64,000 nucleotides of DNA from Raillietiella orientalis (taxonomy: Eukaryota), in NCBI GenBank assembly GCA_036172245.1, contig JAYWIR010000081.1, positions 248,001 to 312,000 of the forward strand, given 5' to 3'. Positions 5,946 to 56,450 of this stretch are shown here, in pieces; position 1 is the first letter of the stretch, and every line of letters begins with the position of its first letter. The position numbers and the translations under genes were made by a program. The notes below the pieces were generated by a model, which saw only the letters and a list, made by a program, of their open reading frames with translations, had not been told where the DNA came from and did no database searches.

Positions 5946-6333
5946 GAGGTTTACTTGAAAAAATAAACGTCTTCACGAACCGAATTTAAATGAAGGCTCT
6001 GGAGAGTGACGCCTCTCATTGATTCGAGAAGGTGTTTCTTCGCACCTAAGAGTCGCGTCCAGTCCCCCGGCGGACGCCACACCCTGCATGGCGGTACCTT
6101 GTCGCGAGGAGGTATCTCGAAAATTAGCCGGGAATGGTCCGACACCGTCGACGCAACCTTCCCCCGTTTACCGACCCGCGAACACGGGTCGGCGTCGAGA
6201 AACGCGTGGTCGATGCTGAGGACTATTCCCCTCTCACCCGCGAACAAGTTGCGCGCACGCATAACGGCGCACAACTCGTTCATCGAGTCCTATTCTGTTT
6301 CTGGCTCACCTGTTAGCAGGCGGAGATTGAAAT

Positions 6334-9300
6334 TTATCACCCGGTCACGCCGGGGCGTTAATTAATAATAATAAACTGGTCAGCGACAATGTCCTTAACC
6401 AACAGAACGACAGAGAACATAGAAAAATTACCGGCACGCAGGCCTGGTAAACAAACCGCTCGCAGCGCGGGAGGAATGAGGGGAAACAAACAAAAATCAA
6501 AACCTGGAGGGAAGGGTAACGGGTTTTTGGTTAGGCTCCGTACTCACGGGGTTTTATACGATGAGCACCTAAAATGTTCCGGAGCCTATGGGGACGCGGG
6601 TGTAAAAAGAAAATACAAATTTAGTTTATGGAGGGTAGGGCAATGATCACCGGGATGGCCGCTGATGAGGGTGTGTAAACCGGCGGTGTATTGCGGCGAG
6701 ATTCCTCTTTGTCTCCTCTGTCAAATGAGGCCATCTAGCGGATGCTCCCATGTAGAAGGATGCTTTGCTGATTACCTCTTGGTGCTGTCCGTTGATTACC
6801 AACGCCTGGAGGACGGAAACTATCGCGCGTATGCAACCGATGGTTGCAATCCTTGCGCTTAGTGAAAGCCCGCTCGGCGTGAAGAATCGTCGCAGCAAGT
6901 CTCTTGCGGTGTCCACGGAATGCAATTGTGCTGTTGCCAGCCTACGCCACAGTCCTTGTAGGACACCGCAGTCCAGAAGTAGGTGCGGAATCGACTCCGT
7001 CGATCCGCACCGAACGTAGTTCGCAGACGCAAGTCCCCCGGAGTCACGATGCCAACGCTCGTTGCACTGAAAACCCCAGTGAACGAAAAGCAGCACGGCT
7101 TGTTTCCAAGCAAGGGGGAGCAGCGAACTGTCCATACACTGTGGAGCGACTACAAGTTCTTCGGGGGTGACAGCAAGTTCTTCTGCCCACCGGAGGAGTC
7201 CCTTTGCAGTAACACGAGGAGTGGCGGCGTCCGCCAACTCACTTGTCTTCCAGGTGCCAAGGAGTTTGGTTCTTTTCGCTATCGTGCAGGAAACCTCCCA
7301 CCTCGTCGGTTGGTAACTGTGGTTTCTTGCCCTGAGGGCATACAGCGCTGCGGCAAGAGGCGTGGCAGCCAGGGTAGAAAACTTTACGTCGTCCTGCAGT
7401 ACTTCTTCCAAGGATCGTGGAAAAAATTGGCGCAGGGGGCGAAGATCTTCAGGGCGTATTCCTTGGAACGCCGCCCAGCATTCAACAGACTCCTGCCGCC
7501 AAGCTTCAAAGTTCATTGGGCGGCAGGAGATCCAAGAGTGTGCTTCCAGAAGTGCGGTCAACTGCCGCAATGGAAAACCGAAACCCCGCTTCCTGTATTG
7601 AGTGCCCGGCAAAAGCGAGAGAAATCCTCCGCTGCCGGCGCATCTCCGCAGGAGAATGCGAGCTGGCACACACAGGGGGGATGTCCATAGCTGGGCACAC
7701 AGTGCCAGCAGTCGGAACTGCACCTGCAGTCCGATTCGCTCCATTGTCAAGATACCCAAACCAGCATCCCGACGCGGAGCTGACAAATGTTTAAGGCGGA
7801 TCCTGGATCTCGCCGGACCCCAGAGAGCGTTCCTGAGCAGGCGCTTAGCCCGCTGTTTTGCTGCATAGGGGGGGTCCAAAACAAAAAACAGGGGACGCAG
7901 GAGGGGGGCCGCAAGGGTGTTCCAAATAGTCGCCCGTTCCTGCAAGGTATACTTGCCGTTAAAGAACGGGCTGATGACCAACTCTGCTTTCTGGAGACAG
8001 TCCGAACACGCTTCGGCTGCGCCGAAAGCGCCCAAAGGAACGCCAAGGTACTTAAAGTACCCGCCCGTGGGGATCCCCAGGCGGATCCAGTCGGACTGCC
8101 CCTCCCACGACGTACCCACAAAAACGACCACGCTCTTCTCTCTGTTCACGCTCACGCCCGCTCCCCGACGAATCAGGTCGATGAAATCCACGACAATGGA
8201 CGCCGGGGTGGACATGGGGAGCAGAAGAAGCAGGTCATCAGCGAAGGCGGCCACGGCAAGCGTTCCCGGGCAGGAGCTTGGCAAGTGAGACAGCGTCAGC
8301 CTGTATGCTTTTAGCACCAACTCAAAGAAGATGCTGAAGAGCAACGGGCTTAAACTGTCGCCCTGTCGGATGCCCCTACGAACGGGAATACCATACAGGC
8401 GGCAGCCGCTAAAAGTGATGCAGGTTAGCGCGTAGCGCCAGCACGCGCGCAAATACAGCAGGAGTTGCGCCGGGAACACAAGGCGTTCCATAAGCTCCAA
8501 AAGCAGCTTCTGGTTTACGCAGTCGAACGCCTTGTGGAGATCGACCGCGACCGCCAAGGCACCTGGCGTTCCCTCCTGCCGTCGGCGCCTGTTCTTTTTG
8601 CCTGCGGCAGTGACTTTCGCAGCAGCCTGGCTTTGCGGCGCCACAACTTCCTGCAGCTGCATCCATGTACGCGCGAAAAGGATGTTCGCCTCCATGGATC
8701 GTCCCGGAACCGCGTAGGTTTGTTCCGGGCTCACCACAGATTCCGCGATACTTCCTAACCGCGCGACCCACAGCTTGGAAAACAACTTGACGTCCGAGTT
8801 CACCAAGGTGATCGGACGCCAGTTGTTAAGTTGGCGCAAGTCTCCGCCTTTCTGCAGGAGACGCACCTTCGCTGAGCGGAAGGAATCAGGGACATTCCCG
8901 GATTCACTCATCAGCGTCGCGAGTTTCAGCATCAAGGGAATGAGCTCCACTGCAAGGCACTGATAAAACTCTGCAGGGAGCCCATCCTCGCCTGGCGCCT
9001 TTCATCTCTTCAGCCCAGCGATGGCGGACGAAAATATATCCGCCGTGAAGGGCTCGTCGAGACGTTCGCGTTCCTCCTCGCCGACAACACGTGCATCCTG
9101 AGACAGGAGTATCTCAGAAAGAATATCCTCCGTCGGGGATTCCGCGTAGAGCGAGGAGTAGTAGCGTCTCAGAATGCGGCGTACTTCGGCTGGGGCCCAA
9201 CATTCCTGGCCCTTGTCGTCCAACAGGCATGCTGCTCCGGACTGCCAGACCTGGCGCTCGGCCCTCACCTTGTACTCTGCGAGACGCCCGACATCCGCGC

Positions 9301-11515
9301 GTCTCGAAAACGTGCGGGCCTGCAGAAAGTCTCTACTGTTGGCCACGCCCTCTCGGAAACCGCGTGGAAGCCGGTGCAAGGGGAATTGGCAACAGAACTC
9401 GCGGACAGATCTTTTGAGATCGTCCCAGTCTACAAGTTCTTGAATGGCAAAGCCTCGGAGGTATCCACGTAGATGCTCCGCAGCCTCCGGTTGGCTAAGC
9501 CAATCCGCCTGCATCCTTCAGTTTTGCAACGGAGGCCCCCTGCCTGGAGGAAGGTTCTCAAACTCCAACCTGTGGTGGTCAGAAAGCTCAGTCAACAATC
9601 TTCCTCTCCTACCCACACGCGAATGCAGGTTTTCATCGAGGAAAACGTGATCGAGCGAACTTACCATTCCAGGTTCGCTGACCATCAAGTTGGCGGCGTG
9701 CACGGACGCGCACATCTCGATGGGCAGCGCGCGCTCCCTCGGGCGGCTCCAATCGTCGGAGAGCAGGCGGACGTTGAAGTCCCCAGCGACGAGGTGCGCC
9801 ACTTGGAAACCGGAGTTGTTGAGCCAGTGGCTCTGCACCTCACCAAAGAAAGCTACTCTTTCTTCGAGGTAGCGAGAGCCACTCGGCGCGTAGACGTTCG
9901 TAACGACGAGATCGATGGACTCGGACCACTTGATGACAAGCTGGCCTATCCGTCCGTCGTCATCGAAACGAACACTACGCACCGCTTCCGCCATTTTTCC
10001 TCTTACTAGGAACGCGACGGCGCACGTGTGTGCGCCGCCGCACCGCCAATGTAGCGTTCCGCCTGCGCGCTCCTCGATTTCGGCTGCCTGCTCGTCGGAG
10101 ATTACGTGAATCTCCTGCAGCAGCGCGAGGTCGAAGAAGCGCGGGGCGTTGGCTACTAATCGCCTCTTCTCGTCGTTCTGCAGACCGTTCACGTTTTAAC
10201 ACGTTACGGACAGACGACGAGAGGACGCGATTCCCCGCATTACTGCTGGGAAGGTGGCGGCTTTTTGCTCGCTTTATCTGGCGAGCAGACGGCGAGCAGC
10301 ACGACTGGCTGGAGGGGACGGTCGCCACCGTCCTCTGTCGTGCTGCATGCATGTAATGCCTCCACGCCAGGCTTATCCCCGTCGGGTTTCGTGGAGACTT
10401 CGCGTGGCTTCGCGGCTACAGTTTCCTGGCTGCCTACTTTTGATCGGCGCGCACACGCTTTCGAGCGAGTTGTCCTCGTCTCGGTGATCGGAACGGCATC
10501 CATTTCGGAGTTTGACCGGCGCATGTTCGATCGGGTTTCGGCCTTCCGCGAAGCAGTGACAGGTTCTGCTGGATTGACAGCTGTCCTGTTTTCGTTTTCT
10601 GGCACCAGAGCATCGCTTTTGGTGACGGCTGCTTTCCCGGCGCGCGCGTTTTCAGCGTGCTCACGCGCAGTTGCACGAGGGACCTTTGCTGAAGTCTTCT
10701 TTACTTCATTACGGTTCCTCATTTCGCGTGGCGCCGTAAATGGAGATTGTGCTCCATGGCCATCTTTGAAGCCATCCGCGTCTTTGGACGTGAGCACTTT
10801 GGATGGCTTCGACACGCTCGTCAGGGACACGGCCTTCGAAAGGGCTTTTCATCCCTTCGTTGGCATGGCATCCGTGGCAGTCGAGAGCTTGCTCTCCGAA
10901 TGCGACGGCGTGAGATTTGAGCTCATGGACTGTGGCGAATTTCGCCAACGCGTTCCGAATATCAGTATCGGAGATTTCCGACTCGATGTCGAAAATCTTC
11001 ACCACAAATGAGTCGTCCATGGCGGTCGGGAAGACCTTCTGGCCACGGATCGACAACGGGGTGCGCAGCAAGCGTTGCACAAGTGCCGCGTCTTTGCAAC
11101 GCACCTTGAAATAGCCCATGTCTTTTACGGGCATAATGGCGAGAAGGTCCTCCTCCCGCACGCCAACACGGGTCAGTTCATCGTTGAACTGATTCCCGTC
11201 GCGCGCAGAAAGAAAACCACTCACCTTATATCGGAGAGCAGGTCTATAGCCTTGGGCTACGTATGCCCGCAACTCCGACTCGTCGAGTGGTTTCCCTCTG
11301 ACGGCTGCTGTGGCAGCAACGTGAGCAAAACTCCTCTCCATTGGCGAGAAAGACGAAGTGGAGGCGGCCGTCGGTTCTGCAATTGCAGATCCGGATGCTG
11401 TTCCTCCAACTTGAGTAGCTTCAAGTTGGGTCGACATCGTCATCAAAATGTACGACGCCAATATGAAGCGGATGAAAGCACGGAGACGAGAGCGAAGAAA
11501 AACACGTCCGCACTC
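6334..11515 (-). mobile_element. Tx1-type element, family B, both ends present; ORF1 internally deleted, ORF2 with stops
   Basis: Flanked by direct repeat GATTGAAAT (6325-6333 and 11516-11524). 5' end matches the copy starting at 54336. ORF2 10240->6647 has WNVNG-like, LQEIH, GDFN, SDH, DLHKAFD, RQGDSLSP, FADD, KYLG motifs. Lacks about 0.73 kb of ORF1 (zinc knuckles) relative to the 54336 copy. Confidence 0.93.
6647..10240 (-). pseudogene. ORF2 (APE endonuclease + reverse transcriptase) of family B, interrupted by in-frame stops
   Basis: ORF pieces 9518-10192, 9002-9514 and 6647-8950 are in one frame; ATG at 10238-10240 overlaps the ORF1 TAA. Confidence 0.9.
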
Positions 11516-13945
11516 GATTGAAATCTCCCGCTATCAGGTGATCCTTTCGCACGTTGCTGTCCGCCAGCCAGTCGAGCTTCATGGTTTCCAGCAACCTGGT
11601 GCAGTCGCAGTACCCCTGTTTGCCGCTGGGGCCATACACATTTGTGACGATTTGGTCGATCGAGTCGGAACAGCTGAGAATCAGCTGACCGATCCGACCG
11701 TCGTCATCAAACCGCACGCTTTTTACGGCAGCGCCGATGGCTGGCTTCACGAAGAACGCGACCCCGCAGGTGTTGCGGCAGCCGCATTGCCGGTACAGCC
11801 GACCCCCCGCGATCGTCTCGATCTCCTGGGCGTCTGCCGCGGTGATCACGTGGATCTCCTGCAGCAGGGCCAGGTCGTGCTCACGCATGGTTTCGGCCGT
11901 ATCTCGCCTGTTGCTGTCGTCGCGCAGTCCGTTGACGTTCCAACAGGCCGCGCGAATCCGACGGCGCCTGGCGAGCCCAGGTGTTAGTCCTGGGAATACG
12001 GCGATGCGGCGTCTGCCACCTGCTGGGGCGGGTCGCTAGGTGGAAGGGAAGGGGGGAGAGGTACTGAAGGCACCTGTTCCTCCTCCTCCATCGGTGCCGG
12101 CGCGTCGGCAGAATCAACCGCAGGTGGAATCGCGCCAACCTGTTCGTCCTCCTCCATGGATTAAGGCTGCTCAGGTTTTGCGACAGCAGGAAGGACTTCA
12201 CCCCCCTGCTAACCCTTCTCCATGGGGGTGGCCGACTCGACGGCTTCCGGGCGTGGGAGTTTCCCCTCCAAGTTTCCCACGCTGCCGCTACCTTCTTGGT
12301 TCTCTTCCTCGCTGGTGGAGGGGAGGCGCCTCCTGGGTTTCTGGGACTTGCGACCCGACTTCTTGGGGGGTGCCTCAGAGAAAAAGAATGCGCTTCCGTC
12401 ACCCAGGTCGCACTCACCTGCGGGGGGCTTTTTCGTCGGAGCCAGCCTGCGTACGCCCTTGCGCAACGGGGTTTCGCGCTCGGCGAGCGTTGCTGCGAGC
12501 TCCTCCGTCGCTTTCTCGAAGGCCGCGTCTTCGACAGCGGCAACCGTTGCCGTGGGCTGCTCCGCGACCTTAACGAGCGCGGCGTCCTCGCTGACGGCGA
12601 ACGTTGCCTCGGGCTCCTCCGAGACTTTATCGAGCGCGGCGTCATGGCTGTCTGCGCGCCAGTCTCGCGTTTCACCCTCTAAACGTTAATTGGTCTCGTC
12701 CTCGCGTGTATCCTTCGCGTCCGCATCAGCTGTTTCGTGAACATTGCCGCGGGCGTCCTCGGCAGGAACGGCTAAGCGTTCCAATGCCAGCGAGCATTCG
12801 CAAAGTTGTTTTTTTGTAAGCAGCGCGGCTTTTTTCTTTTTGCCGGCATTTATCTTCTCCGACTTTTCTTCTGCCATCACTTTCTCTTTTTCTTTTCCGG
12901 CCTGATCAGCTGCTAACCCTCCTTTAATCTCACGTCCACGGGAGCTCTTTCTTCCGACGCCTGTACTGGAGGCTGGCAGTTGGGAACGGCCATTTTCGCG
13001 AACTGATCTTTCTATCAGCTTTCCACGTTTTGTCTGCGCCTTTATGACGGCAGGGGGCACCGGGGTGGGGCGCTTGGGGCAAACGCGCCGAACGTGACCG
13101 TTTTCCTCGCATAGTTGGCACACAATGTTCGGGCACCTTTTCCGTAGACGCCCTACTGCATTGCAGTAGCCACAAAATTGGGGTTTGCCCACGTACCAGA
13201 GGTCCACCGCTTCTTGGCAGAGCTCCAGCTTGGGGTGAAGAGCACCACCCTCTTTTACGGAAATACGCACCGCAGCTTGACCTCCGAAAAGGCTATTGTA
13301 GCCTTGGAAAATCGTGGGATTCCGCCACAACGCGTGCACTTCTACGTGCTTTCGCAACTGATCACCAACCGCTGACCTAGTCATGCGACTGGAGATCCCA
13401 GTGAGATGGACCACCACCGAGCGGTCCATCGTCACCGGCAAGATCTTTCGACCATCAACGATCAGCGGGTCGGTGATCAGGCGTTCGGCCAAGGCGATAT
13501 CTTTGCATACCACCTCGACCCGCTGCCTGCCGCTGAGGACGGAGAGGCCGTCAAGATCTTGTTCGAAAATGTTGGCGTGCTGCAGCGCCATCGTAATGGC
13601 GCGTGCAGTTCGCCCATCGAAAAGGTTGCCTACTTTCTAGACTACCGAGGGTTTATACCCCGCTTCGTTGTAGTCTTCCATCTCGGCCATGGCTTCCACG
13701 CTAGGCGCGGCCTCCATGGCGCTCGATGACCTAGACGTCGCCGGGGATGATTCCGGGGCGGATGCCCCTTATCCAGTGGGCTGTGGGGGCAGACAAGCCT
13801 CCTTCACGCCTACTTCCATCGCATTGTCCTCTGGCAACGCTGCCATCGTACACCGACGATGTGCACGCACAAACCACTCAAGGAAAAAGCACTCGCCTTG
13901 CCACGCAGGCGGAGCGCAGGAAAAGCACGTTCTCTCTCCACAAAG

Positions 13946-16534: not shown

Positions 16535-19155
16535 TCGCGAAGGTGTTCCTTCGCACCTGATAGTCGCGTTTAGTCATCTGGCAGACTCTAATTTCTGGAT
16601 GGCGGTCCTTTGTCGCGAGGCCGCATCTTGAAAATTAACCTGGAATGGTCCGACAACGTCGACGCAACCCTACCCCGTTTGCCGACCCGTGAACACAGGT
16701 CAGCGTCGACGAAGACGTGGTCGATGCTGAGGACCATTCCCCTCTCACCTGCGAACAAGTTGCGCGCACGCATGGCGGCGCACAACTCGTTCATCGCGTT
16801 CTCTTGTGTTTCTGGCTCACCTGTTAGCAGGCGGAGATTGAAATCTACCGCTATCAGGTGAGCCTTTCGCACGTTCGTGTTCGCCAGCCAGTCGCGCTTC
16901 AGGGATTTCAGCAGCATGGTACGGTCGCTGTATCCCTGTTTACCGCTTAGGGCGTACACATTCGTAACGATCAGTTCGATCGAGTCGGACCAGCTGAGAA
17001 TCAGCTGACCGACCCGACCGTCGCCATCGAAGCGCACGCATTTCAAGGCAGCGTCGATGGCCGGCTTCACGAAGAACGCGACCCCGCAGGTGTTGCGGAG
17101 GCCTCACCGCCAATACAACGGACCCCCCGCGATCGTCTCGATCTCCTGAGCGTCTGCCGCAGTGATCACGTGGATCTCCTGCAGCAGGGCCAGGTCGAGC
17201 TCACGCAGGGTGTCGGCCGTATCTCGCCTGTTACCGTCGCCGCGCAGCCCGTTGACGTTCCAACAGGCGGCGCGAATCCGACGGCGACTGGCGAGCCCAG
17301 GTGTTACTCCTGGGAAGATGGCAGTGCGGCGTCCGCCACCTGCTGGGGCGGAACGCTAGGTGGAGGAGGGGGGTCAGGTGCTGAAGGCACCTGGTCCCCC
17401 TCCACCAACGGTGCCGGCGCGTCGGCCGGATCACCCGCAGGTGGAGTCGCGCCTACCTGTTCGCCCTCCTCCATGGGGGCGGGCTGTTCAGGGTGGGCGC
17501 CTGCAGGGGGGACTTAACCCCCTGTTCACCCTCTTCCATGGGGGTGGCCGGCTCGACGGCTTCCGAGCGTGGGAGTTCCCCCTCCGGGATTCCCACGCTA
17601 CCGCTACCTTCCTGCTTCTCCTCCTCGCTGGTGGAGGGGAGGCGCTTCCTGGGTTTCTGGGACTTGCGTCTCGAATTCCTGGGGGGTGCCTCCGAGGAGG
17701 AGGATGCACTTCCGGCCTCCATGTCCGACTCACCTGTATGGGCCTTATTCGCGAGAGCCGGCCTTCGCACGGCCTTGCAAGAGGGGTTCCCACGCTCGGC
17801 CAGCGTGGCCGCGAGGTCCTCCGCCGCCTGAGCGAACGCGACGTCCTCGGCTTCGACCGTCGCTATTTCGCGCGGCTCACCCTCTGTGTAAACAGAGGGT
17901 TCGCCGTCGCGAACCTCGGGCGCGGCGCAAACGGCGAGGAAAGGCTCGTCGCCCCAGGTGGCAATCTCGGGAACGGCTATGCGCTCCAGTGTTACGGTAC
18001 ACTCGCGCATGGTCTTTGAGCGCGGCCCAGGTTTTTTCGCCTTGCCGGCTGTCTTTTTTACCGCTTTCGCGGGTTCCGCGTGGGGCACCTTTTTCTCCTT
18101 CCTGGCCTTGACCAGCTGCCAGCCGTCTTGGACTCCCGCTTCTTCGGAGGGTTTTTCTTCCGACGCCTGTGTGGGAGGAGAAGGGGCTAGCGGCTGCTGC
18201 CGGCCAGTATCTCTTTTTGGTCTTTCGACTAGTTTACCGCGTTTTGCCTGTGCTTTCTTTGCAGCAGGCGGCACCGGAGTGGGGCGTTTAGGGTATACGC
18301 GGCGTACGTGGCCCCTCTCCCCGCATAAGTGGCACACAATGTTCGGGCACCGCTTGCGCAAGTGTCCTACTGCATTGCAGTAGCCACAAAAGCGGGGTTT
18401 CCCCACGTACCAGAGGTCTACGACTTCGCCATTGACCTCTAGTTTGTGGGGAAGCCCACTCTCCTTCACCGTCACGCGCGCGGCGGCCTGCCCTCCGAAA
18501 AGGCTATCGTAGCCATCGAAGATTGTGGCCTTTGGCCAAAGCGCGTGAACATCTCCGTACTTTCTTAACTGATCACCAACCGCAGACCGCGTCATGCGGC
18601 TGGTGATCCCTGTCAGATGGACCACTACGGAGCGGTCCATCGTGACTGGGAGGATCTTGCGTCCGTCCACGTTCAGCGGGGTGGTTATCAAGCTTTGCGC
18701 CAAGGTGATGTCCTTGCAGACAACCTCAACGCGCTGACCCCCGCTTAGCACGGATAGACCGTCAAGGTCCTTTTCCAACACGTTGGCGTTCTGCAGCGCT
18801 TTCGAAAAAGCGCGTGCAGTTCGCCCGTCAAAGAGATTGCCTACCTGGTAAACCAAGCTGGGCTTGTACCCAGCTGCCCGGTAGGCCGCCATCTCGGCCT
18901 TGGTTTCCGCGCTCGGCGCGGCTACCATGGCGCTCCAGCTCCTCGCTTTGAGCGGCGAGGGCGATTCCGGGGCGGACGCCCCTGATTCTGTAGGCTGTGG
19001 AGGTGGGCAAGCCTCCCCCACACCTACCTCTATCGTGATGTCCTCAGGCATCGCTGCCATCGGACACCAACGATGTTCCACACTAAACAACACAACAAAA
19101 AACCGCTTCCTGTCGACTCACTCGGGAGCGAAGGAAACACACGTCCACTCGCCAA
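16535..19155 (-). mobile_element. Family A copy 2 (5' UTR, ORF1 with late frameshift, endonuclease domain), 3'-truncated; in tandem with copy 1
   Basis: Nearly identical to 22190-24815; ORFs 17453-19093 and 16588-17070. Confidence 0.92.
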
Positions 19156-19371
19156 GGGATTCGGCGTTGCCACCCGGGTACGCCCGGGGCGTTTATTGAT
19201 AAACTTTACATGCGTGGTACAAGGCCCCACCACGGCCGTAAACACAGGACCTGTCGGGACACCGGGACGCAGCCCGGCGTGGCACTCCCCGACAGCGAAG
19301 GGGGATGGGGATGAGACAAAAAGTAAAATAAAAAGAAACAAACAAAAAGAAGTTGGAGGGCAGGGAAGGGA

Positions 19372-22300: not shown

Positions 22301-22965
22301 CCGGGAATGGTCCGACAATGTCGACGCAACCCTCCCCCGTTTGCCGACCCGTGAACACAGGTCAGCGTCGAGGAAGACGTGGTCGATGCTGCGGACCATT
22401 CCCCTCTCACCCGCGAACAAGTTGCGCGCACGCATAGCGGCGCACAACTCGTTCATCGCGTTCTCTTGTGTTTCTGGCTCACCTGTTAGCAGACGGAGAT
22501 TGAAATCTCCCGCTATCAGGTGAGCCTTCCGCACGTTCGTGTCCGCCAGCCAGTCGCGCTTCAGGCAATCCAGCAGCCTGGTACGGTCGCTGTATCCCTG
22601 TTTACCGCTGGGGGCGTACACATTCGTGACGATCAATTCGATCGAGTCGGACCAGCTGAGAATCAGCTGACCGACCCGACCGTCGTCATCGAAGCGCACG
22701 CCCTTCACGGTTGCGTCGATGGCCGGCTTCACGAAGAACGCGACCCCGCAGGTGTTGCGGAGGCCGCACCGCCAATACAGCCGACCCCCCGCGATCGTCT
22801 CGATCTCCTGGGCGTCTGCCGCGGTGATCACGTGGATCTCCTGCAGCAGGGCGAGGTCAAGCTCACGCAGGGTGTCGGCCGTATCTCGCCTGTTACCGTC
22901 GTCGCGCAGCCCGTTGACGTTCCAACAGGCGGCGCGAATCCGACGGCGACTGGCGAGCCCAGGTG
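19372..22965 (-). pseudogene. ORF2 (APE-RT-zinc finger) of family A with two frameshifts
   Basis: Pieces 21560-22831, 21102-21536, 19372-21399; GDFN, SDH, DLHKAFD, YADD, KYLG, CARCGERESLPHL. Confidence 0.92.
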
Positions 22966-24720: not shown

Positions 24721-24815
24721 CGGACACCAACGATGTTCCACACCAAACAGCACAAGAAAAAACCGCTTCCTGTCGACTCACTCGGGAGCGAAGGAAACAC
24801 ACGTCCACTCGCCAA

Positions 24816-27800: not shown

Positions 27801-27819
27801 CGGCATATCCGTGTGACAA
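24816..27819 (+). mobile_element. Element X (possibly family C): decayed ORF2 from the GFG linker to the 3' end; host of the family A array
   Basis: GFGGGLRNDRAY..., YADD, KYLG, CGERETFPHL; stop 27567; terminal AATAAATGCCCCGGCATATCCG; 23-bp tandem duplication at 26609-26654 causes a frameshift. Confidence 0.9.
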
Positions 27820-27831
27820 ACGGCGGAGGCA

Positions 27832-35489: not shown

Positions 35490-35580
35490 TGAGAGGGTGG
35501 ACGAGCTTTTGTGGTGCTCCGCGTTTTTCTCGCGAGTGTTTTCGGTGTTTTCAGCTGTGAGCGGTTGTTCCTGGGCAGAG

Positions 35581-37247: not shown

Positions 37248-37255
37248 ACGCATCA

Positions 37256-40200
37256 GTGCGTGGGCTCGCCTTCTGCCGCCGCTTGCGCATCACCTGTTGG
37301 AATGTCAACGGGTTGCGCGACGGCGGAAAGAGGCGAGATGTAGCCGCCATACTGCGAGACTTCGACCTGGTGCTCCTGCAAGAGACGCACGTTCTCCGAC
37401 CGGGAGATGTCCAGGAAATCGAAAGAATCGCGGGGGGGCGGCTACTGTGGAGGAACGGAACGGACAACTCCTGCGGAGTGGCCTTTCTGCTAAAGCCAAC
37501 CGTCGACAACTCACTGCGCAGTGCACGGTTCGACGGGGATGGTCGAGTTGGGCAGCTTGTGTTCAAGTGGTCCGACTCGATCGACCTCGTAGTCACGAAC
37601 CTGTACGCTCCGGTGAGCAGTCACAGGGCCGAGGAACGCACTGCGTTCTTCGAAACCTTGCGGCGAGACTGGTTGGCCGAAGCAGGCGTGCGAAGGGCGC
37701 ACCTCATTGCGGGCGATTTCAATCTCCGCCTGCTGGCAGGTGCGCCCAGCGGACGAGCACAGCTGGTCAACGAATTGTGCGCAGCCATGCATGCGCGCAA
37801 CTTGTTGGCCGGCGATGCCGGGAGAGATCGGAACATCGACCACATGTTCCTCGACAACCACCTGTGCACGCGGGTGGGAACTCGAGGAACGCTCCCGGCA
37901 GAGCTGTCCGACCATCCACGGCTCGTGCTCGAGTTACATCCGCGCAATAAGGGCCCTCCCCTGAAAACATGGCACCTGCCAGGGGATTGGTTGCGCCTCG
38001 CAGGAGCGGCGGAACATCTACGCTGTTTCCTGCGAGGATTCCAGCTTCAGACGCTCGCGGACTGGGACGAAATGAAGTGCTCAGTCCGTGAGTTTTGCGA
38101 CCAGTTTCCGCTGGAACGTCTTCCGCCGGGCTTCGGTGAGGGTGTCAGGAACGAGCGGGCGTACCTCCAGGCGCGCCGTTATTCCCGGCGTCCCGACGTC
38201 CGTCGCCTGGCTGAATTCAAGGCTGAGGCGGAGAGGCAGGCCTGGCAGTCAGGCTCGGCCTGCCTGCTGGATCATCAGGGCCAAGAACGCTCCAGCCCAG
38301 CCCTGGTAAGCCGCATCGTGCGGGAGTTTTATTCCTCCTTGTACGCGCCACTGACACCTGAGCGCCATTTCGCGCAGCGCCTGCTGCCGGATGGCGCTCC
38401 CGCGCTCAAGGAGGAGGACCGTTCCAGATTGGCGGAACCGTTCACGATGGCGGAGATCATCTCCGCCATCAACAGGCTAAAGAGAAGGAAGGCACCAGGG
38501 GAGGACGGCCTGCCCGCGGAGTTTTACCATCGCTTCGCGCCAGAGCTGGCCCCCCTGGTGCTCAGGTTAAGTGCGCTGATCCGCGAACACGGCGAAGTTC
38601 CCGCCTCGTTCCGGTCAGCTAAATTACGTCTCCTGCCGAAGTCAGGAGACTTACGCAACATTGGCAACTGGCGTCCCATCACAGTAGTGAATGCGGACGC
38701 AAAGTTGTATGCCAAGTTGTGGGCTGAGCGTTTGGGGCGGGTGCCCGCTTCCGTGGTGAGTCCCGAGCAGACCTATGCTGTTCCCGGACGAACCATGGAG
38801 GCCAACCTGCTCCTCGCCAGCTCATGGTGGCAGTTGCGACAACGCGTTGCACACGACGGTCAAGGGAGCCTCGCGCCCTTCTCTGACCAAGAAGATCGGG
38901 CAGAGGGTGGGATGGATTCGGCGGGAGCCTTTGCCGTCGCGGTCGATTTGCACAAAGCATTCGACTGCGTCGACCAGGATCTCCTTCTGGAGCTCCTGGA
39001 ACGCATGGGTTTCCCTGCCGTGCTCCAGTCCTACCTGCGCTGCTGCTGGCGCAACGCGTCAATAAATATTGGTTTTAGCGGCCGGCACGTGTACGGTGTG
39101 CCAGTGCGCCGCGGCATCCGGCAGGGTGACAGCCTGAGCCCCTTGCTCTTCAGCATCTACTTCGAGTTGGTGCTGAGGGCATATAGGGTAACTCTGGCAA
39201 CCCTGCCGAGCTCGTGTGCCGGCACGCCTGCCGTGTCGGCCTATGCAGACGATCTTCTGCTGCTGCTTCCCGGGTCCACCCCGGCGAGTGCACTCGAGGA
39301 CTTCTTCGAGTTGCTGCGCCGCGGGACGGGCCTGGAGGTGAACAGGGCGAAGTCGTCCATGGTCTTCGTCGGTTCGGCGTGGGCTGGACAGTCGGACTGG
39401 ATCCGCTTGGGGATCCCCACGGGCAGGTGCTTCAAGTACCTCGGCGTACCGTTGGGGGACTTCTGCGCAGCAGAAGCCTGGTCCGACCGTCTCCAAAAGG
39501 CAGCGTTGGCGATCGGTCCGTTCCAAGAAGGCAAGTTCTACTTGCAGGAACGGGCCGCGGTGTGGAACGCGTTTGCGGCTCCCCTCCTTCGCCCCCTACT
39601 TTTTGTTTGCCCCGCCCCTTATTTTATTCGAAAACGAGCAGCGGGCCTCCTGAGGACAGTCCTTTGGGGCAAAGGGAGGTCCCGTGTGAGGCTCAAAGAC
39701 TTGTGCGCTCCACGTAAGGACGGTGGACTTGGCTTACTTACGCTGGAGCGCATCGAAATACAACTTCGATTCAGGACTCTCGCCCTTGCGGCAGAATTGT
39801 GGGACACGCCTTGGTGCGTTCCAGCACGCCTCCTGGCCCAACAAGCCTGCGGAATCGGCGGACTTTTGTCGTTTCTGTCTGCGCGCGTCTGCAGAAGACC
39901 ATACTGTGGCTCTATGCTGCGACGCATCTTTGTTGCGGTTCGGGAGAACGCCTGGATCTCCTGCCTCCCAGGGAACTACTCCGCCTGGTTGCACGAGTCA
40001 GTCTCCACCTGGGTAAAGACCCACGTTCCGGCGGGCACAAGGAACACTTGTATGAAAAGGCACGCCCGCTGGACGCTGCAGGAGATCGTGCAGTCCCACG
40101 ACAAGCTTCTGTGGGCCTTGATAACCCCCCTCTCCCCAGTGCTGCCCTTCCTTGTGAATGCCAGGGACAGTAGCGAGCAGGGGAAATGGACCGTGTCCTG

Positions 40201-41042: not shown

Positions 41043-41067
41043 AATAAATGCCCCGGCACATCCGGGT
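41043..41067 (+). terminator. Conserved element 3' terminus: AATAAA + CCCGG-N5-CCGGG hairpin (representative of nine instances)
   Basis: AATAAATGCCCCGGCACATCCGGGT; homologues near 6340, 15689, 19173, 27799, 28464, 31553, 47906 and 52284. Confidence 0.75.
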
Positions 41068-42297: not shown

Positions 42298-45200
42298 GCA
42301 GACGTGTTTCTTTTGCTGCTCCTGCGTTTTAGCGCGAGGTTGTAGGTTGTGTGGTGTTTGGGCGGTGTTTTGAAGGCAGAAATGCCTGAGGACACCGCCA
42401 ATGCGGAAAAGGGGGACGGGCGTGCCTTGTCCCCTCAGCCCATGGATGTGGGGGCCATCTCCCCCACAGATTCGTCCCCCGCCCCGGCGAGGTCTTGGAG
42501 TGCGGTGGTGGCGGCTCCTGCGCCGCCACCATGCGAGGAACAGCGGGCCTATGAGTCCCACGGATATAACCCGGCCCTACTGTATAAGGTAGGTGGGCTT
42601 TATTCTCCCGCGATGTTGAGAACGTTTGCCGCGGAATTTAAAAAACTGAAAGTGCCGGAAGAAGAAGTTCTCGGGCTTTCCGTTCGCAGTGGCGGTCAGC
42701 TAGTGGAGCTGAACTGCAAAACTGCAGGAATGACTCAGCAGTTGCTGAGATGCCCGGTGACCGTGAACGGGAGAAGGATCTTCCCGTTTACTGCCGACAA
42801 ATCGATCGTCATCCACCTGACCGGGTTGACGATGCGAATGGCGAAAAATGCCGTTAGGCAGGAACTGGAAAAATACGGGACCGTCCACGCTCTCTGGGCT
42901 AAGCCGAACACCCTGGGCTATACTAGGGCGTTCAGTGGCTATGCCGCCGCGCGTGTGACAGTCCGCGAGGATAGTGGTTTACCCCACCGACTTCAGGTCG
43001 ATGAAGAATACATTGATCTGTGGTACATAGGGAAACCCAAATTTTGCGGAAACTGCGAGACTACAGGGCACCTTAAACGGAGGTGCCCCAACATCGTGTG
43101 TCTACGCTGCGGTAACAAGGGCCACGTAAGAAAGGTGTGCCCTCTTCGTTTTGCTTCCACTCCTGTTGGCAACAAGAGAACAGAGTCGCCACAGGAACCG
43201 GACAAACAGGATCCCCAATCGAGTGAAACCTCCCAGACAGGCGAGATATCGACGCCAGTGGAACAAAAACCGGAGGAAGGCGAAACTGTCGCCGAAAACA
43301 GTTGGCAGTTGGTGAAAAAGAAGGAAAGCAAAAAGAAAGGTAAGGCCCCCAAGAAAACGGTGAAAATGGTGGCAAAAACCGTCCGCCGTTCCACCGTGCA
43401 CATCGATCGCGTTCCCGCGAAGGCTTCCACCAGCAAGCCATCGATCGATACCGCACCCGCGGCGTCGATCGATAGAGCGGTTCCGGCTTCGTGCGGCGAA
43501 ATCGCTACGGTCGCGATCGATAGCGCGGCACACGTTGCCGCGATCGAAATTGTTGTTCCAGTCCAGTCCACTGGAAGCGTTGTAGCGGCGAGCGAAAGCT
43601 CAGCCGCTGCGGTTCCGAACGATAGCGCGCCAGTTGCCGCTATCGAATCGGTTGTTACGTCACCCGACTCGCCAACAGGCGGCGAAATCCGTGATGACGT
43701 GGAACGCATCTCTGATGCAAACTTCGCTCAAGCCGCGGAAGAGTTGGCTGCCTTCCGGAGGCAGCCCGTCAAGGCCGAGAAGAAGGCCGTTCGACGCCCG
43801 GCTACGGCAAAAGACCCGGAAACCTCCGAGTTTGACGCCGAAAGCGGGAACTCGCCCTCCGTTGGCTTGCCGAAAAGAAAACATAAAAATGCAACAGGTG
43901 CTCGTAAGCGTGCTGTCACCTCTCAGGAAGAGGTTGAAATGCCATCTGACAGCGAGGAAGAGTCCATGTGCGTTGCACAATGCGACTTCGTGCCTGAGAG
44001 CATCCTTTACCAACTGTTAACACAGTCCACGGCCGACGGAGTGAGCGATGCCCCTGAACACTCCAACGACATGGACCCGGACCACCCGTCTTCTGAACAG
44101 GAGGCGGTTTCTTCCACCCCACCATAACAACACCATTGCGTGGACTCGCCTCCTCTAGCCGCTTGCGAATAACCTGTTGGATCGTCAAAGGGTTGAGCAG
44201 CGACGGGAAGAGGCGAGACGTAGCCGCCATTCTGCGAAACTTCGACCTGGCCATACTGCAAGAGACTCACGTGCTCACAACAGAAGCAGGCCAGGATTTC
44301 GAAAGAATCACAGGAGGGCGGCTACTGTGGAGGAACGGAACAGACTACTCCTGCGGAGTGGCCTTTCTGCTGAAGCCGGCAGTCGAAAACTCTCTGCGTA
44401 GCGTTCGCTTCGACGGGGACGGTCGAGTTGGACAACTTGTTCTCAAGTGGTCCGACTCGATCGACCTCGTAGTCACGAACCTGTACGCGCCAGTGAGCAA
44501 CCACGGGGCCGAGGAACGCACTGCGTTCCTGGAATCCCTGCGGCGAGACTGGCTGGCTGAAGTAGGCGTACGGAAGGCGCACCTCATTGCGGGCGCTTTC
44601 AATCTCCGCCTGCTAGCAGGTGCACCCAACAGACGAGCACAGCTGGTCAACGAGTTGTGCGCAGCAATGAATGCTAGCAACTTGTTGGCCGGTGATACCG
44701 GGAGAGATCGGAACATCGATCACATGTTCCTCGACAACCACCTGTGCACGCGGGTGGGAACTCGTGGAACGCTCCCGGCAGAGCTGTCCGACCATCCACG
44801 GCTCGTGCTCGACCTACATCCGCGCAACAAGGGTCCTCCCCTGAAAACGTGGCGCCTGCCAGGGGACTGGTTGCGCCTCGCAGGAGCGGCGGAACATCTG
44901 CGCGCCTTCCTGCGAGAATTACATCTTCAGACGCTCGCGGACTGGGACGAAATGAAGTACTCAGTCCGCGAGTTTTGCGAACGGTTTCCCCTGGAGCGTC
45001 TTCCTCCGGGCTTCGGAGAAGGTGTCAGGAACGAGCGAGCCTACCTTCAGGCCCGCCGGTATTCCTGACGACCCGACGTTCGTCGCCTGGCGGAATTCAA
45101 AGCTGAGGCGGAGAGGCAGGCCTGGCAGTCAGGCTCGGCCTGCTTGCTGGACCATCAGGGCCAAGAACGCTCCAGCCCAGCTCACGTAAGCCGCATCGTG

Positions 45201-47926: not shown

Positions 47927-50900
47927 CGCAGTGACGTCACCATCAGCTGACGACAATGCCGTTCCGGCATTGCCAGCGAAGGACGTCTGCGCGCCGATCG
48001 ATGAAGCCGCCCCTATCGCGCCTGCGCAAAGCGTCGGTGCGGAAAGCAAGGAGGCGGCGCGCATAACGGACGCGACCTTCGCGCAGGCCGCGGAAGAGCT
48101 GGCAGCCATGTTACGGCAGCCTGCCAAGGCCGAGAAGAAGGCCTTGAGACGACCGGCAACGGTGAAGGGCCCGGAAAATTCCGAGTCCGAAACCGAAGCC
48201 GGTTGCTCTACTTCCGCAGCCGTGCCGAAGAGGAAAGCTGGCAAGAAGGCCGGATGCCCGAGACGTGTCGCCTCCTCCCAAGTGGAGGAGCCCATGTCAT
48301 CGGGCACGGAGGAGGAGGCAATGTGCGTCGCGTCACGCGAGCCTTCTCCGATCCGTGTCTCGGAAGCCAGCGCAATGGAGGTCGCTGCTGACGACGTGCT
48401 CCCGGGTGAGCAGCCGACCGTCGTCACGTCCGCCAACGAGCCGCCTCCCGAACGGGAGGAGGCCGCCTCCACCCCACCATAAATACACCAATGCGTGGGC
48501 TCGCCTCCTGCCGCCGCTTGCGCATCACCTGTTGGAATGTCAACGGGTTGCGCGACGACGGAAAGAGGCGAGATGTAGCCGCCATACTGCGAGATTTCGA
48601 CCTGGTGCTCCTGCAAGGGACGCACGTTCTCCGACCGGGAGATGTCACGGAAATCGAAAGAATCGCGGGAGGGCGGCTACTGTGGAGGAACGGAACGGAC
48701 AACTCCTGCGGAGTGGCCTTTCTGCTAAAGCCAACCGTCGACAACTCACTGCGCAGTGCACGGTTCGACGGGGATGGTCGAGTTGGGCAGCTTGTGTTCA
48801 AGTGGTCCGACTCGATCGACCTCGTAGTCACGAACCTGTACGCTCCGGTGAGCAGCCACAGGACCGAGGAACGCACTGCGTTCTTCGAAACCTTGCGGCG
48901 AGACTGGTTGGCCGAAGCGTGCGTGCGAAGGGCGCACCTCATTGCGGGCGATTTCAATCTCCGCCTGCTGGCAGGTGCGCCCAGCGGACGAGCACAGCTG
49001 GTCAACGAGTTGTGCGCAGCCATGCATGCGCGCAACTTGTTGGCCGGTGATGCCGGGAGAGATCGGAACATCAACCACATGTTCCTCGACAACCACCTGT
49101 GTACGCGGGTGGGAACTCGAGGAACGCTCTCGGCAGAGCTGTCCGACCATCCACGGCTCGTGCTCGAGTTACATCCGCGCAATAAGGGCCCTACCCTGAA
49201 AACATGGCGCCTGCCAGGGGATTGGTTGCGCCTCGCAGGAGCGGCGGAACATCTACGCTGTTTCCTGCGAGGATTCCTGGTTCAGACGCTCGCGGACTGG
49301 GACGAAATGAAGTGCTCAGTCCGTGAGTTTTGCGACCAGTTTCCCCTGGAACGTCTTCCGCCGGGCTTCGGTGAGGGTGTCAGGAACGAGCGGGCGTACC
49401 TCCAGGCGCGCCGTTATTCCCGGCGTCCCGACGTCCGTCGCCTGGCTGAATTCAAGCCTGAGGCGGAGAGGCAGGCCTGGCAGTCAGGCGCGGCCTGCCT
49501 GCTGGATCATCAGGGCCAAGAACGCTCCAGCCCAGCCCAGGTAAGCCGCATCGTGCGGGAGTTTTATTCCTCCTTGTACGCGCCACTAACACCTGAGCGC
49601 CATTTCGCGCAGCGCCTGCTGCCGGATGGCGCTCTTGCGCTCAAGGAGGAGGACCGTTCCAGATTGGCGGAACCGTTCACGATGGCGGAGATCATCTCCG
49701 CCATCAACAGGCTCAAGAGAAGGAAGGCACCAGGGAAGGACGGCCTGCCCGCGGAGTTTTACCATCGCTTCGCGTCAGAGCTGGCCCCCCTGGTGCTTAG
49801 GTTAAGTGCGCTGATCCGCGAACACGGCGAAGTTCCCGACTCGTTCCGGTCAGCTAAAGTACGTCTCCTGCCGAAGTCAGGAGACTTACGCAACATAGGC
49901 AACTGGCGTCCCATCACAGTAGTGAATGCGGACGCAAAGTTGTATGCCAAGTTGTGGGCTGAGGGTTTGGGGCGGGTGGCCGCTTTCGTAATGAGTCCCG
50001 AGCAGACCTATGCTGTTCCCGGACGAACCATGGAGGCCAACCTGCTCCTCGCCAGCTCATGGTGGCAGTTGCGACAACGCGTTGCACATGACGGTCAAGG
50101 GAGCCTCGCGCCTTCCTCTGACCAAGAAGATCGGGCAGAGGGTGGGATGGACTCGGCGGGAGCCTTTGCCGTCGCGGTCGATTTGCACAAAGCATTCAAC
50201 TGCGTCGACCAGGATCTCCTTCTGGAGCTCCTGGAACGCATGTGTTTCTCTGCCGTGCTTCAATCTTACCTGGGCTCCTGCTGGCGCAACGCGTCAATCA
50301 ATATCGGTTTCAGCGGCCGCCACGTGTACGGCGTGCCCGTACGCCGCGGCATCCGGCAGGGTGACAGCCTGAGCCCCTTGCTCTTCAGCATCTACTTCGA
50401 GTTGCTGCTGAGGGCATACAGGGTAACTCTGGCAACCCTGCCGAGCTCGTGTGCCGGCACGCCTGCCGTGTCGGCCTAGGCAGACGATCTTCTGCTGCTG
50501 CTTCCCGGGTCCACCCCGGCGAGTGCACTCGAGGACTTCTTCGAGTTGCTGCGCCAAGGGACGGGCCTGGAGGTGAACAGGGCGAAGTCGTCCATGGTCT
50601 TCGTCGGTTAGGCGTGGGCTGGACGGTCGGACTGGATCCGCTTGGGGATCCCCACGGGCAGGTGCTTCAAGTAGCTCGGCGTACCGTTGGGGGACTTCTG
50701 CGCAGCAGAAGCCTGGTCCGACCGTCTCCAAAAGGCAGCGTTGGCGATCGGTCCGTTCCAAGAAGGCAAGTTCTACTTGCAGGAACGGGCCGCGGTGTGG
50801 AACGCGTTTGCGGATCCCCTCCTTCGCCCCCTACTTTTTGTTTGCCGCGCCCCTTATTTTATTCGGAAACGAGCAGCTTGTCTCCTGAGGACAGGTCTTT

Positions 50901-52316: not shown

Positions 52317-54335
52317 TGAGAGGGTGGACGTGCTTTTGTGGTGCTCCGCGTTTTTCTCGCGAGTGTTTTCGGGGTTTTCAGCTGTGAGCGGTGGTTCCTG
52401 GGCAGAGATGCCCGAGTACGCCGGAAAGACGGCGGAGGGGGGCGAGCGAGCCTCGTCCCCCCAGCCCATGGATGTGGGGGCCATCTCCCCCACGGAATCG
52501 TCCCCGCCCCGGCGAGGGCTTGGAGCGCGGTGGTGGCGTGGTGCATTTGACCGGCATAACGATGCGCATGGCAAAGAGCGCCGTGCGAGAATCGTTAGAG
52601 AATTTCGGGACCGTTCACGCGTTGTAGGCAAAACCCAACACCCTGGGTTATACCAGGGCGTTCAGTGGCTATGCCGCCGCGCGTGTGACGGTCCGAGAGG
52701 AAAGTGGTTTACCCCACCGACTGCAGGTCGGTGATGAACACATCGACCTGTGGTACATAGGGAAACCTAAATTTTGTGTAAATTGCGAAGCCATCGGACA
52801 CCTCAAACGGAGGTGCCCTAACATCGTGTTCCTCCGATGTGGTACCAAGGGACACGTACGAAAGGTGTGCCCTTCTCGTTTTGCGTCCACTCCTGCTGGC
52901 AACAAGAAAACCGAGTCGCCACAGGTGCAGGACAAACAGCATCCCCCATCGGGTGAATGCTCGCAAGCAGGCGAGAAACCGATGCCGGAGGAAGAAAAGG
53001 CGGAGGATGGCGAAGCTGTCGCCGAATACAGCTGGAAGTTGGTGGAGAAAAAGGAGAGCAAGGGGAAAGGTACGGCCCCCAAGAAAACGGTAAAAATGGT
53101 GGCGAAAAGCGTCCGTCGTTCCACCGTAAACATCGATCGCTTTACCGCGAAGGCTTCCTCCAGCAAGCCGTCGATCGATACCGCATCTGCGGCATCGATC
53201 GATAGAGCGGTCCCGGCCCCGTCCACCGAAATCGCTACGGTAGTGATCGATATCGCGGCACCTGTTGCCGCGATCGATACTATTGTTCCAGTTCCGTCCG
53301 CTGGAAGTGTTGTAGTGGCGAGTGAAAGCTCAGCCGCTGCTGTTCCGATCGATAGCCCGCCGGCTGCAGCTTTCGATTCGGCAGTGACGTCACCGGACTC
53401 GCCAACAGGCGGCGAAGTCTGCGATGACGCGGAACGCATCTCCGATGCAGCGTTCGCGCAAGCCGCGGAAGAGTTGGCTGCCTTGTTAAGGCAGCCCGTC
53501 AAGGCCGAGAAGAAGGCCGTTCGACGCCCGGCTACGGCGAAGGACCCAGAAAACAGCGAGTCCGACGCCGAAACCGGGAACTCGTCGACCGTAGGGTTGC
53601 CGAAAAGAAAAAATAAAAGTTCAACGGGAGCTCGTAGGCGTGCTGTCCCCACTCAGGTAGAGGTGGAAATGGCATCCGACAGCGAAGAGGAGTCAATGTG
53701 CGTTCAAGCGTGCGACTCTGCGCCTAAGAGCATCCTATTCCAACTGTTGACACAGTCCTCGGCCGACGAAGCACACCAAACTCCTTCCGAATCCGTCGGC
53801 GTGGACGCGGAACACCCGTTTCCTGAAAGGGAGACGGTTTCCTCCACACCACCATAAATACACCTATGGTGTGGGCTCGCCTGCTGCCGTCGCTTGCGAA
53901 TTACTTGTTGGAACGTCAACGGGTTGAGCAGCGACGGCAAGAGGCGAGACGTAGCCGCTATACTGCGAGAATTAGACCTGGCTCTACTGCAAGAGACTTA
54001 CGTGCTCACAGCAGAGGCAGGCCAGCATTTCGAGAGGATCGCAGGGGGCAGGCTACTGTGGAGGAACGGAACAGATCACTCCTGCGGAGTGGCCTTTTTG
54101 CTGAAGCCGTCCGTCGAAAACTCACTGCGTAGTGCACGGTTCGACGGGGGCGGTCGAGTTGGGCAGCTTGTTCTCAAGTGGTTCGACTCCATCGACCTCG
54201 TGGTCACGAACCTGTACGCTCCGGTGGGCAGCCACAGATCCGAGGAACGCACTGCGTTCTTCGAATCCCTGCGGCGAGACTGGTTGGCCAAAGCAGGCGA
54301 GCGAAGGGCGCACCTCATTGCGGGCGATTTCAGTC
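52317..54335 (+). mobile_element. Chimeric D/E-like element (D 5' end, internal deletion, E-like ORF1, endonuclease up to GDF); host of family B copy 2
   Basis: 5' end matches D; sequence jumps from ...GTGGTGGCG to TGGTGCATTTGACC near 52538; downstream ORF 52685-53857 resembles E ORF1. Confidence 0.88.
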
Positions 54336-56425: not shown

Positions 56426-56450
56426 TCGGGCAGTCTGCTTTTTAGAATCC

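Follow-up and report, generated by a model that had tools for sequence, protein, structure and literature searches.

Element B, a candidate site-specific LINE of Raillietiella orientalis inserted at the endonuclease codons of sister LINEs

Site-specific long interspersed nuclear elements (LINEs) are known from ribosomal DNA (rDNA), small nuclear RNA (snRNA) genes, microsatellites, telomeres and a few DNA or long terminal repeat (LTR) transposons. One of the groups to which such elements belong, the Tx1 clade, has been described as an animal group. One paper (PMC4640811) assigns target-specific LINEs with an apurinic/apyrimidinic endonuclease (APE) to the Tx1 and R1 clades and has transposons among their known targets. 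According to another (PMC4494074), Tx1L of Xenopus targets the piggyBac-type transposon Tx1D, crocodilian Tx1-Mar families target Mariner-N4_AMi, and Tx1-8_Crp and Tx1-4_AMi target specific LTR retrotransposons. The subject here is element B, found in a stretch of 64,000 nucleotides (nt) from Raillietiella orientalis (assembly GCA_036172245.1, contig JAYWIR010000081.1, positions 248,001 to 312,000 of the forward strand). This whole stretch is referred to below as the window, and coordinates are those of the window. B is probably a site-specific, L1/Tx1-like LINE whose target is the sequence coding for the endonuclease domain of sister LINEs.

The first 58 kb (1-58 kb) of the window form a nest of related non-LTR retrotransposons of eukaryote type with a GC content of 52-64% (55-62% for individual LINEs); the families are designated by letters.

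Two insertions of B at the GDFN codons of other LINEs

Both copies of B in the window adjoin codons for the G-D-F-N motif in the APE domain of another LINE, in sense orientation relative to the host gene (Table 1). This motif is said, since work by Feng et al. in 1996, to carry the catalytic residues of L1-type endonucleases (D145 and N147 in that numbering). At copy 1 the frame of the host, A', enters B as ...HLIAGDFN and continues after it as DFNLRLLTGEPETE..., and the duplicated 9-mer ATTTCAATC spans (G)AT TTC AAT C(TC), the D-F-N-L codons of the host. By tblastn, APE residues 1-152 of A' lie on one side of B and residues 139-224 on the other, in the same frame. The two halves of A' align with one uninterrupted A copy (5998-6333 with 22171-22506, and 11516-12533 with 22498-23512), and since these alignments overlap by exactly 9 nt, the insertion was clean and made a 9-bp target-site duplication. 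No terminal repeats were found in B; with the duplication and the 9-nt overlap in empty-site paralogues, this is the pattern of insertion by target-primed reverse transcription (TPRT). The initial annotation, which had B at 6334-11515 between D-F-N-L codons of A' with the host frame resuming beyond, was correct to the base.

Copy 2 starts directly after ...GCGGGCGATTTCAGTC (longer flank ...CACCTCATTGCGGGCGATTTCAGTC), the ...HLIAGDFS codons of a D-like LINE. The same annotation had placed its start, from 54336 onwards, at the homologous codons of a different, D/E-like host family, and the flank is indeed of D/E type right up to the junction. As copy 2 breaks off at 56428, its 3' junction is absent from the window.

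It is clear from these sequences that the two insertions are independent. The copies of B are 95.68% identical over 1367 nt, whereas the 5' flanks of the two hosts are only 63.0, 64.5 and 63.7% identical over their last 100, 200 and 460 nt, and both hosts have a nearer relative among the unoccupied paralogues (host 1 is 85.4 and 84.8% identical to uninterrupted A1 and A2, and host 2 is 83.9% identical to D and 72% to E). The claim that B had inserted twice independently is thus borne out (in round figures 95.7% for the B copies, 63-64% for the host flanks and 84-85% for the hosts with their unoccupied paralogues). A single ancestral insertion from which both host flanks derive, carried along by duplication of the host, is excluded by the identities of B and of the flanks.

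A variant of that idea is very improbable: a single insertion after which B moved between host families through ectopic recombination, gene conversion or template switching across a shared 20-nt block, in which case the choice of site by the endonuclease would not be what the two junctions record. The block at the junction, GATTTCAATCTCCGCCTGCT, is identical in both host types, segmental duplication has occurred elsewhere in the nest (36692-41307 and 47927-52538 are 96.2% identical across an element boundary), and with no visible 3' junction in copy 2, one side alone can be checked. However, on the 5' side recombination would have had a mere 10 nt of identity to work with, the flank being host-specific up to that point; hosts about 64% identical are far too diverged for homologous recombination; and between the B copies there is a divergence of 4.3% together with a 726-bp indel, which fits separate products of retrotransposition.

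Copy 1 extends on the minus strand from GAGTGCGGACGTG... to ...CCCCGGCGTGACCGGGTGATAA; read in its own orientation, B begins GAGTGCGGACGTGTTTTTC and finishes AATTAACG-CCCCGGCGTGACCGGG-TGATAA. The copy consists of a 5' untranslated region (UTR), a remnant of open reading frame (ORF) 1, a spacer ORF, the APE, a linker, the reverse transcriptase (RT) and a 3' UTR with an AATTAA/hairpin/TGATAA tail. Its Pfam matches are RVT_1 (3.9e-22) and Exo_endo_phos (1.3e-09); there was no match to zf-RVT at E ≤ 1, and a C..C...H....C pattern is seen in the translation. Copy 1 is incomplete, its ORF1 being without a 726-bp segment that copy 2 carries at 54932-55657. On either side of that segment, copy 2 corresponds to B (54336-54931 to B 1-596 at 97.0% identity, 55658-56428 to B 598-1369 at 94.6%), and the segment completes an open 328-aa ORF1 (54414-55400). 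The translation of this ORF1 has a CCHC-like knuckle, CEQCGKEGHCLNKC, with no Pfam match at E ≤ 1, and B's ORF1 shows 29-33% aligned identity to the ORF1 regions of sister elements.

ORF2 of copy 1 holds three in-frame stops (TAA, TGA and TGA) at codons that read W, W and R in the intact sister element E1, and copy 1 is a dead element. The changes (TGG>TAA, TGG>TGA and CGA>TGA-like, at 6647-10239) are all C>T or G>A transitions; the substitution spectra between the two B copies and between E1 and E3 are otherwise without strong skew. An alternative genetic code as the source of the stops was rejected, as the 1203-aa ORF2 of E1 is open under the standard code and the stops align to W, W and R. 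A further B-like fragment, 75% identical (12-393, minus strand, within 2-476), covers APE residues 1-81 and the spacer and runs off the left edge; no recognizable 5' end of this fragment was found within the window.

The domain content of the clade is best seen in E1, whose intact ORF2 of 1203 aa matches Exo_endo_phos (1.2e-14), RVT_1 (1e-22) and zf-RVT (22.6 bits, under the cut-off of 27.5) and whose ORF1 matches zf-CCHC (5.7e-05, passing the cut-off). The best solved relative of the clade's ORF2 is human LINE-1 ORF2p (5e-46), with R2 at 1e-14. The closest matches with a name are unlabelled fish pol-like proteins (about 30% identical), and a protein atlas yielded only generic APE+RT clusters without taxa. 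On domain content and nearest solved relative, the clade falls within the L1 group of APE-type non-LTR retrotransposons.

The 3' end of B has no poly(A), and instead a hairpin with a short A-rich tail. The same design recurs in B, A, D, E, G, H and I (all eight recognized 3' ends): an AATAAA-like signal, 2-3 nt, a hairpin CCCGG-N5-CCGGG or a 6-bp form, TG or TA, and an A-rich tail of 3-5 nt. As the stem is invariant among the eight ends, there is no covariation, and the predicted fold of B's last 60 nt was not better than that of shuffled sequences (z = -0.19). Across the whole window no Rfam family, whether an HDV-like ribozyme or another RNA, reached its gathering score, and for 11150-11600 at E ≤ 5 there were only three chance-level miRNA/snoRNA matches.

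Specificity of the target site and further copies of B

All the B termini in the window are at the target site (two of two 5' ends and the one 3' end). The exact 9-mer ATTTCAATC occurs six times in the 64 kb, each time at a homologous APE site (6/6). Five of the seven host-type sites keep the exact 10-mer, GATTTCAATC, and four of those five are unoccupied. The looser 10-mer GATTTCARTC with at most one mismatch was not enriched in the window (9 matches, 7.5 expected). If insertion were blind to position, a second event at the same site would have p ~5e-5 (about 7 homologous bonds in the same orientation among 2 x 64,000 positions).

How many bases B reads is a separate matter. ATTTC occurs 131 times in the window (7 at homologous sites), GATTTC 46 times (6 homologous) and the 7-mers 12-13 times (6 homologous). 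The two events therefore require a specificity of roughly at least 6 nt; they do not distinguish a preference for 6-7 nt from recognition of 10-20 nt, and reading of the whole motif is not demonstrated. These counts lend themselves to a different explanation, which we consider possible though distinctly less probable than homing: a short nick preference of about 4-6 nt (ATTTC, TTCAAT), as in ordinary L1-type elements, acting in a permissive, LINE-rich region. GDFN codons would then be one of the few A/T-rich spots in GC-rich elements, and the two insertions would coincide without homing. The GC content across the LINE nest fits this, as do the perfect sites left unoccupied and one non-canonical B 3' flank described below. 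With a specificity of 5 nt or less, however, a second event at the homologous site has p ≤ 0.05 (7/131), and the two B junctions agree to the nucleotide and in orientation. Absence of poly(A) together with a conserved 3' hairpin is, moreover, typical of stringent, often site-specific LINEs.

Copies outside the window bear on the same question. Of three public runs listed, among which there was no RNA data set containing the stretch, X1 contains 43% of the sampled words of the stretch (share 0.43), and its contigs were placed at ≥ 88% likeness; X2 and X3 gave no contigs matching the stretch. X1 is possibly the window's own sample, and its contigs may represent an orthologous copy; they are not clearly independent evidence. 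One contig joins 6324 to 11516 with 9 ambiguous shared letters, which is the empty site. A second (1040 nt, 98% like B) begins at 6315 and so includes 19 nt of sequence beyond the 3' end of B. This end point is the first difference between A-type and D/E-type hosts, and 19 nt is the length of the block they share; such a contig end would be expected if B occupies more than one host type, although there are also other reasons for a contig to stop. A third (3755 nt) has the full-length form, with 726 letters between 10918 and 10920, and extends to 11545, 30 nt past the 5' terminus. That these junction contigs run 19 and 30 nt into canonical flank, past B's termini, is at odds with a short nick preference.

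One further contig (at 6363) shares only B's last 30 nt before entering a different A-rich sequence, and may represent a non-autonomous or variant element that uses the B tail. Two others skip 228 and 239 nt inside B (8554-8783 and 9430-9670) and are internal deletion variants.

Several observations weigh against site-specific homing. The insertion events seen directly number two and the junctions three. Under a 6-nt preference (GATTTC) the coincidence has p ~0.13, and under a 7-nt preference p ~0.5; long recognition is thus not demonstrated. Four perfect sites and one variant site are unoccupied, and element I, B's closest relative in the window, has a 3' flank other than the GDFN site. One B 3' end in X1 enters a different flank after only 'AT' (loose end 6332, among the 6 of 45 loose contig ends listed, on which the results for such ends rest). 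Neither this flank nor the other listed loose ends had a meaningful match in the window. At least one B copy may thus occupy some other site, or a more divergent host in which the cut sites are displaced. The deviant flank could be read as (A)AT CTC TTG CGC TTG, that is N-L-L-R-L, and would then be the same motif, cut at displaced positions in a third host. Finally, no further copy of B was found in the public collections scanned (metagenome, genome and viral contigs, and proteins). B's last 20 nt gave one locus in metagenome contigs, on an unrelated GC-rich contig without B sequence, and its first 24 nt gave none in genome contigs or in viral contigs. With B's RT as query, genome contigs returned 14 pattern matches and no relatives, and a search for occupied sites by a host-into-B read-through ORF (P0050, residues 150-204) among proteins of 112-357 aa returned one candidate, with none scored.

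On whether most other B copies have unrelated flanks, which the initial annotation had named as the outcome that would count against its claim, X1 bears to a limited extent: its contigs run 19 nt past a canonical 3' junction and 30 nt past a canonical 5' junction, and one other B 3' end has a different flank. X1 thus gives weak support for the canonical site, with one dissenting junction. Taking all of this together, site-specific homing is ranked ahead of a short-motif preference.

As a site-specific element, B could work as follows. It would be a non-LTR retrotransposon of about 5.9 kb of L1/Tx1 type, with a zinc knuckle in ORF1 and with APE, RT and a C-terminal cysteine motif in ORF2. Its target would be the block GATTTCAATC(TCCGCCTGCT), which encodes G-D-F-N-L(-R-L-L) in the APE of sister families A and D/E, entered by TPRT in host-gene orientation. 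From the geometry of the duplication, the B endonuclease would nick the host-antisense strand at 5'-...GATTGAAAT^CTCC-3', the freed 3'-OH would prime cDNA synthesis at the end of B's 3' UTR, and the RT would read the terminal hairpin and tail rather than poly(A). A cut of the sense strand 9 nt downstream would then give the ATTTCAATC duplication. The part of the protein that reads the site, the bases read, the nick positions and any selective benefit are what we infer for B. Because the target is multicopy and conserved at the nucleotide level among families about 64% identical, it could serve as a dependable and harmless landing pad, and the disrupted host endonuclease would be a consequence of landing.

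A more pointed, adaptive reading, which builds on an inference in the initial annotation, is that B is specialized to kill competing LINEs through their catalytic codons, with hosts escaping and B protecting itself by synonymous change. Each B insertion does break the APE domain of its host just past GDFN. Compared with the 20-nt block of the hosts, B's own version has three differences (3/20), which all fall in the duplicated 9-mer, and over the following ten positions there are none; in B's variant 9-mer, GACTTCAACG, two changes are synonymous (GAC, AAC) and one replaces L by V. These variant codons at B's own site are consistent with self-immunity. Such a placement of the differences, however, has a chance probability of about 0.1, and 3/9 equals the average divergence (33-36%). 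There is also no signature of escape: in E1, E3 and the two A copies the 10-mer is unchanged and its codons end in T. The sole variants belong to D (GCT) and host 2 (AGT); they are non-synonymous, destroy the motif and lie in decayed copies. Both B copies seen are defective or truncated, and an explanation by safe haven requires no competition. The adaptive reading is unlikely.

Table 1. Position and strand of B, its hosts and the target sites in the window
Feature	Position	Strand	Description
B copy 1	6334..11515	-	5.2-kb APE+RT LINE; Pfam and ORF translations
B 5' terminus, GAGTGCGGACGTG	11503..11515	-	Same terminus at 54336-54348 (+); related termini in families A, C, D, E
B 3'-terminal GC hairpin, CCCGG-CGTGA-CCGGG, then TG ATAA	6338..6354	-	Same architecture at eight element 3' ends of several families
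Target-site duplication at B's 3' end	6325..6333		GATTGAAAT on +, ATTTCAATC in element orientation
Target-site duplication at B's 5' end	11516..11524		GATTGAAAT on +; perfect 9 bp
Host A', upstream part (APE N-terminal part to G-D-F-N)	11516..12533	-	85% identical to uninterrupted A copies
Host A', downstream part (APE C-terminal part)	5998..6333	-	Frame resumes DFNLRLLTGEPETE*...; homology to A stops at 5998
B copy 2 (5' 2.1 kb only)	54336..56428	+	Ends at B position 1369 into unrelated lower-GC sequence
Host 2 (D', D-like LINE)	52320..54335	+	5' terminus via ORF1 to APE residues 1-141, ending ...IAGDFS at B
Target 9-mer at copy 2 5' junction	54327..54335	+	ATTTCAGTC, one A>G difference
B's own GDFN block	9762..9784	-	GGG GAC TTC AAC GTC CGC CTG CT
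Unoccupied site in A copy 2	16836..16845	-	GATTTCAATC, exact 10-mer
Unoccupied site in A copy 1	22498..22507	-	GATTTCAATC, exact 10-mer
Unoccupied site in E1 (ORF2 intact, 1203 aa)	37715..37724	+	GATTTCAATC, exact 10-mer
Unoccupied variant site in D	44595..44604	+	GCTTTCAATC (G-A-F-N), homologous position
Unoccupied site in E3	48950..48959	+	GATTTCAATC, exact 10-mer

Other LINE families of the nest

All families have a 5' terminus of the form GAG(N)G(N)GGACGTG in common, and true termini of several lie at conserved coding motifs of sister elements, so that site choice would seem to belong to the clade as a whole. Element C has its canonical 5' end (30361, plus strand) against the A-H-R-A-F-D codons of host H (minus strand; 30340-30373). 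At 15660-15720 the canonical 3' end of an A-like element (~15684, minus strand) adjoins a plus-strand host directly after ...L-H-K-A-F. Both insertions are antisense in RT motif A, at E1 ORF2 residues 584-588, and as the host copies differ at 8 of 17 nt, they are separate events.

Other families are arranged head to tail. A 16-mer, CGCCGAATCCCTTGGC (minus strand), precedes the 5' termini of A2 and A1 (19151-19166 and 24811-24826); it is the antisense of the (P)KGFG codons of element G, in the conserved PPGFGEG linker motif, and A1/A2 has the appearance of two insertions into one site, with 16 bp duplicated. A 15-mer, CAACCCGCCGCCTGA, separates F, E1, E2/3 and D' (35478-35492, 41073-41087 and 52305-52319) and is identical to the last four codons and stop of F's ORF1 (34356-35492). 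According to McGurk and Barbash 2018 (PMC5932611), double insertions of site-preferring transposons give rise to head-to-tail dimers. The A1/A2 pair (16-mer) and the series E1, E2/3 and D' (15-mer) resemble the dimers described there, each with a copy of the target duplication between the elements. The likeness concerns the neighbouring families and not B itself. As the 96.2% block mentioned above crosses an element boundary, some of the E array may have arisen by segmental duplication and not by separate insertion.

Element D (42301-47926) is nested in E2/3, whose halves lie at 41073-42300 and 47927-52304, with a 10-bp duplication, CGCAGTGACG. This insertion is in the spacer between ORF1 and APE, beside the palindrome TGACGTCA; the 5' flank of E1 is a region of F homologous to that of D's insertion, about 25 nt further on. 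The 3' end of G (hairpin and TGACAA) meets an F-type 5' terminus, ACGGCGGAGGCAATTG..., head to tail without a spacer (27799-27823).

Judged from its reading frames, E1 (35493-41072) could be active. Its ORF1, of 311 aa, is open and carries a CCHC knuckle, and the frame of ORF2 continues for 1203 aa without a stop. There is no ATG in ORF2 before residue 196, and it overlaps the preceding ORF by about 47 nt, suggesting frameshifting or reinitiation. Element I (31545-34265, minus strand), whose RT is 67% identical to that of B at the amino acid level and 70% at the nucleotide level, has lost its 5' part up to about ORF2 residue 375. The 3' end of I, with a hairpin and TAATAAA, is in non-coding sequence of element C, and its truncated 5' end adjoins the full 5' terminus of F. 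Beyond the nest (56429-64000) GC falls to 40-46%; this part contains a short tandem repeat (~61950-62390) and a decayed RT of the same clade (60200-61135, minus strand) with 48% identity to the RT of B.

A tentative extension is a guild of at least five L1/Tx1-like LINE families, each homing to a different conserved coding block of its sisters. B would take the GDFN codons of APE in sense orientation; C and the A-like element, RT motif A (L-H-K-A-F-D) in antisense; A, the PPGFGEG linker codons in antisense; and E and D', the last codons of another family's ORF1. If there is such a guild, it would be a self-contained network of parasites on parasites that builds LINE nests without touching host genes, and every family would have variant codons at its own copy of the site.

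Comparison with known site-specific elements

Human LINE-1 (8uw3 and 8sxt; endonuclease 7n8s) and the clade of B are alike in an APE fold with a GDFN motif, an RT, a C-terminal cysteine-rich segment (putative in B) and TPRT with duplications. The solved endonuclease chain 7n8s has GAFN at the position of GDFN, presumably as a catalytic mutant. The consensus nicked by L1, TTTT/AA, is a loose one, and L1 has a poly(A) 3' end. B, unlike human LINE-1, ends in a hairpin and TGATAA and shows insertions at the same site.

The R1 and R2 elements of rDNA and homing endonuclease genes resemble B in occupying the most conserved stretch of a multicopy or essential target, of which occupied and empty sites coexist. 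For them conservation guarantees that the target persists, as is proposed here for B. R2 differs from B in its restriction-like endonuclease and its HDV-like ribozyme, none of the ribozyme families having been detected in B. A further difference is that R1/R2 and homing genes target host genes, whereas B targets other parasites.

The closest parallel is with LINEs of the Tx1 clade (Tx1L, Tx1-Mar, and Keno in U2 snRNA genes). Like B, these combine APE and RT in the L1 group with a zinc knuckle (putative in B) in ORF1, and they use one defined sequence of a multicopy target, for which other transposable elements can serve. B may therefore work like a Tx1-type site-specific LINE, a likeness drawn from domains and choice of target and not from RT phylogeny. 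It differs from the Tx1 clade in its target, the GDFN codons of closely related LINEs, where those elements use DNA transposons, LTR elements or RNA genes. No report of a LINE targeting the coding sequence of sister LINEs was found in the full-text literature searched, with subscription journals and Repbase reports outside its coverage. The GDFN codons would be a new class of target for a known kind of site-specific element.

If B is such an element, conserved coding sequence of selfish elements can act as a safe multicopy landing pad, and nested LINE clusters would have a simple mechanism by which to build up. B would also provide a natural APE endonuclease with a defined target of 9-20 bp, which is of interest for programmable RNA-templated insertion, and would allow a direct test of interference between competing retrotransposon families. 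As a landing pad, the GDFN codons of its sisters would be to B what rDNA is to R1 and R2 and Tx1D is to Tx1.

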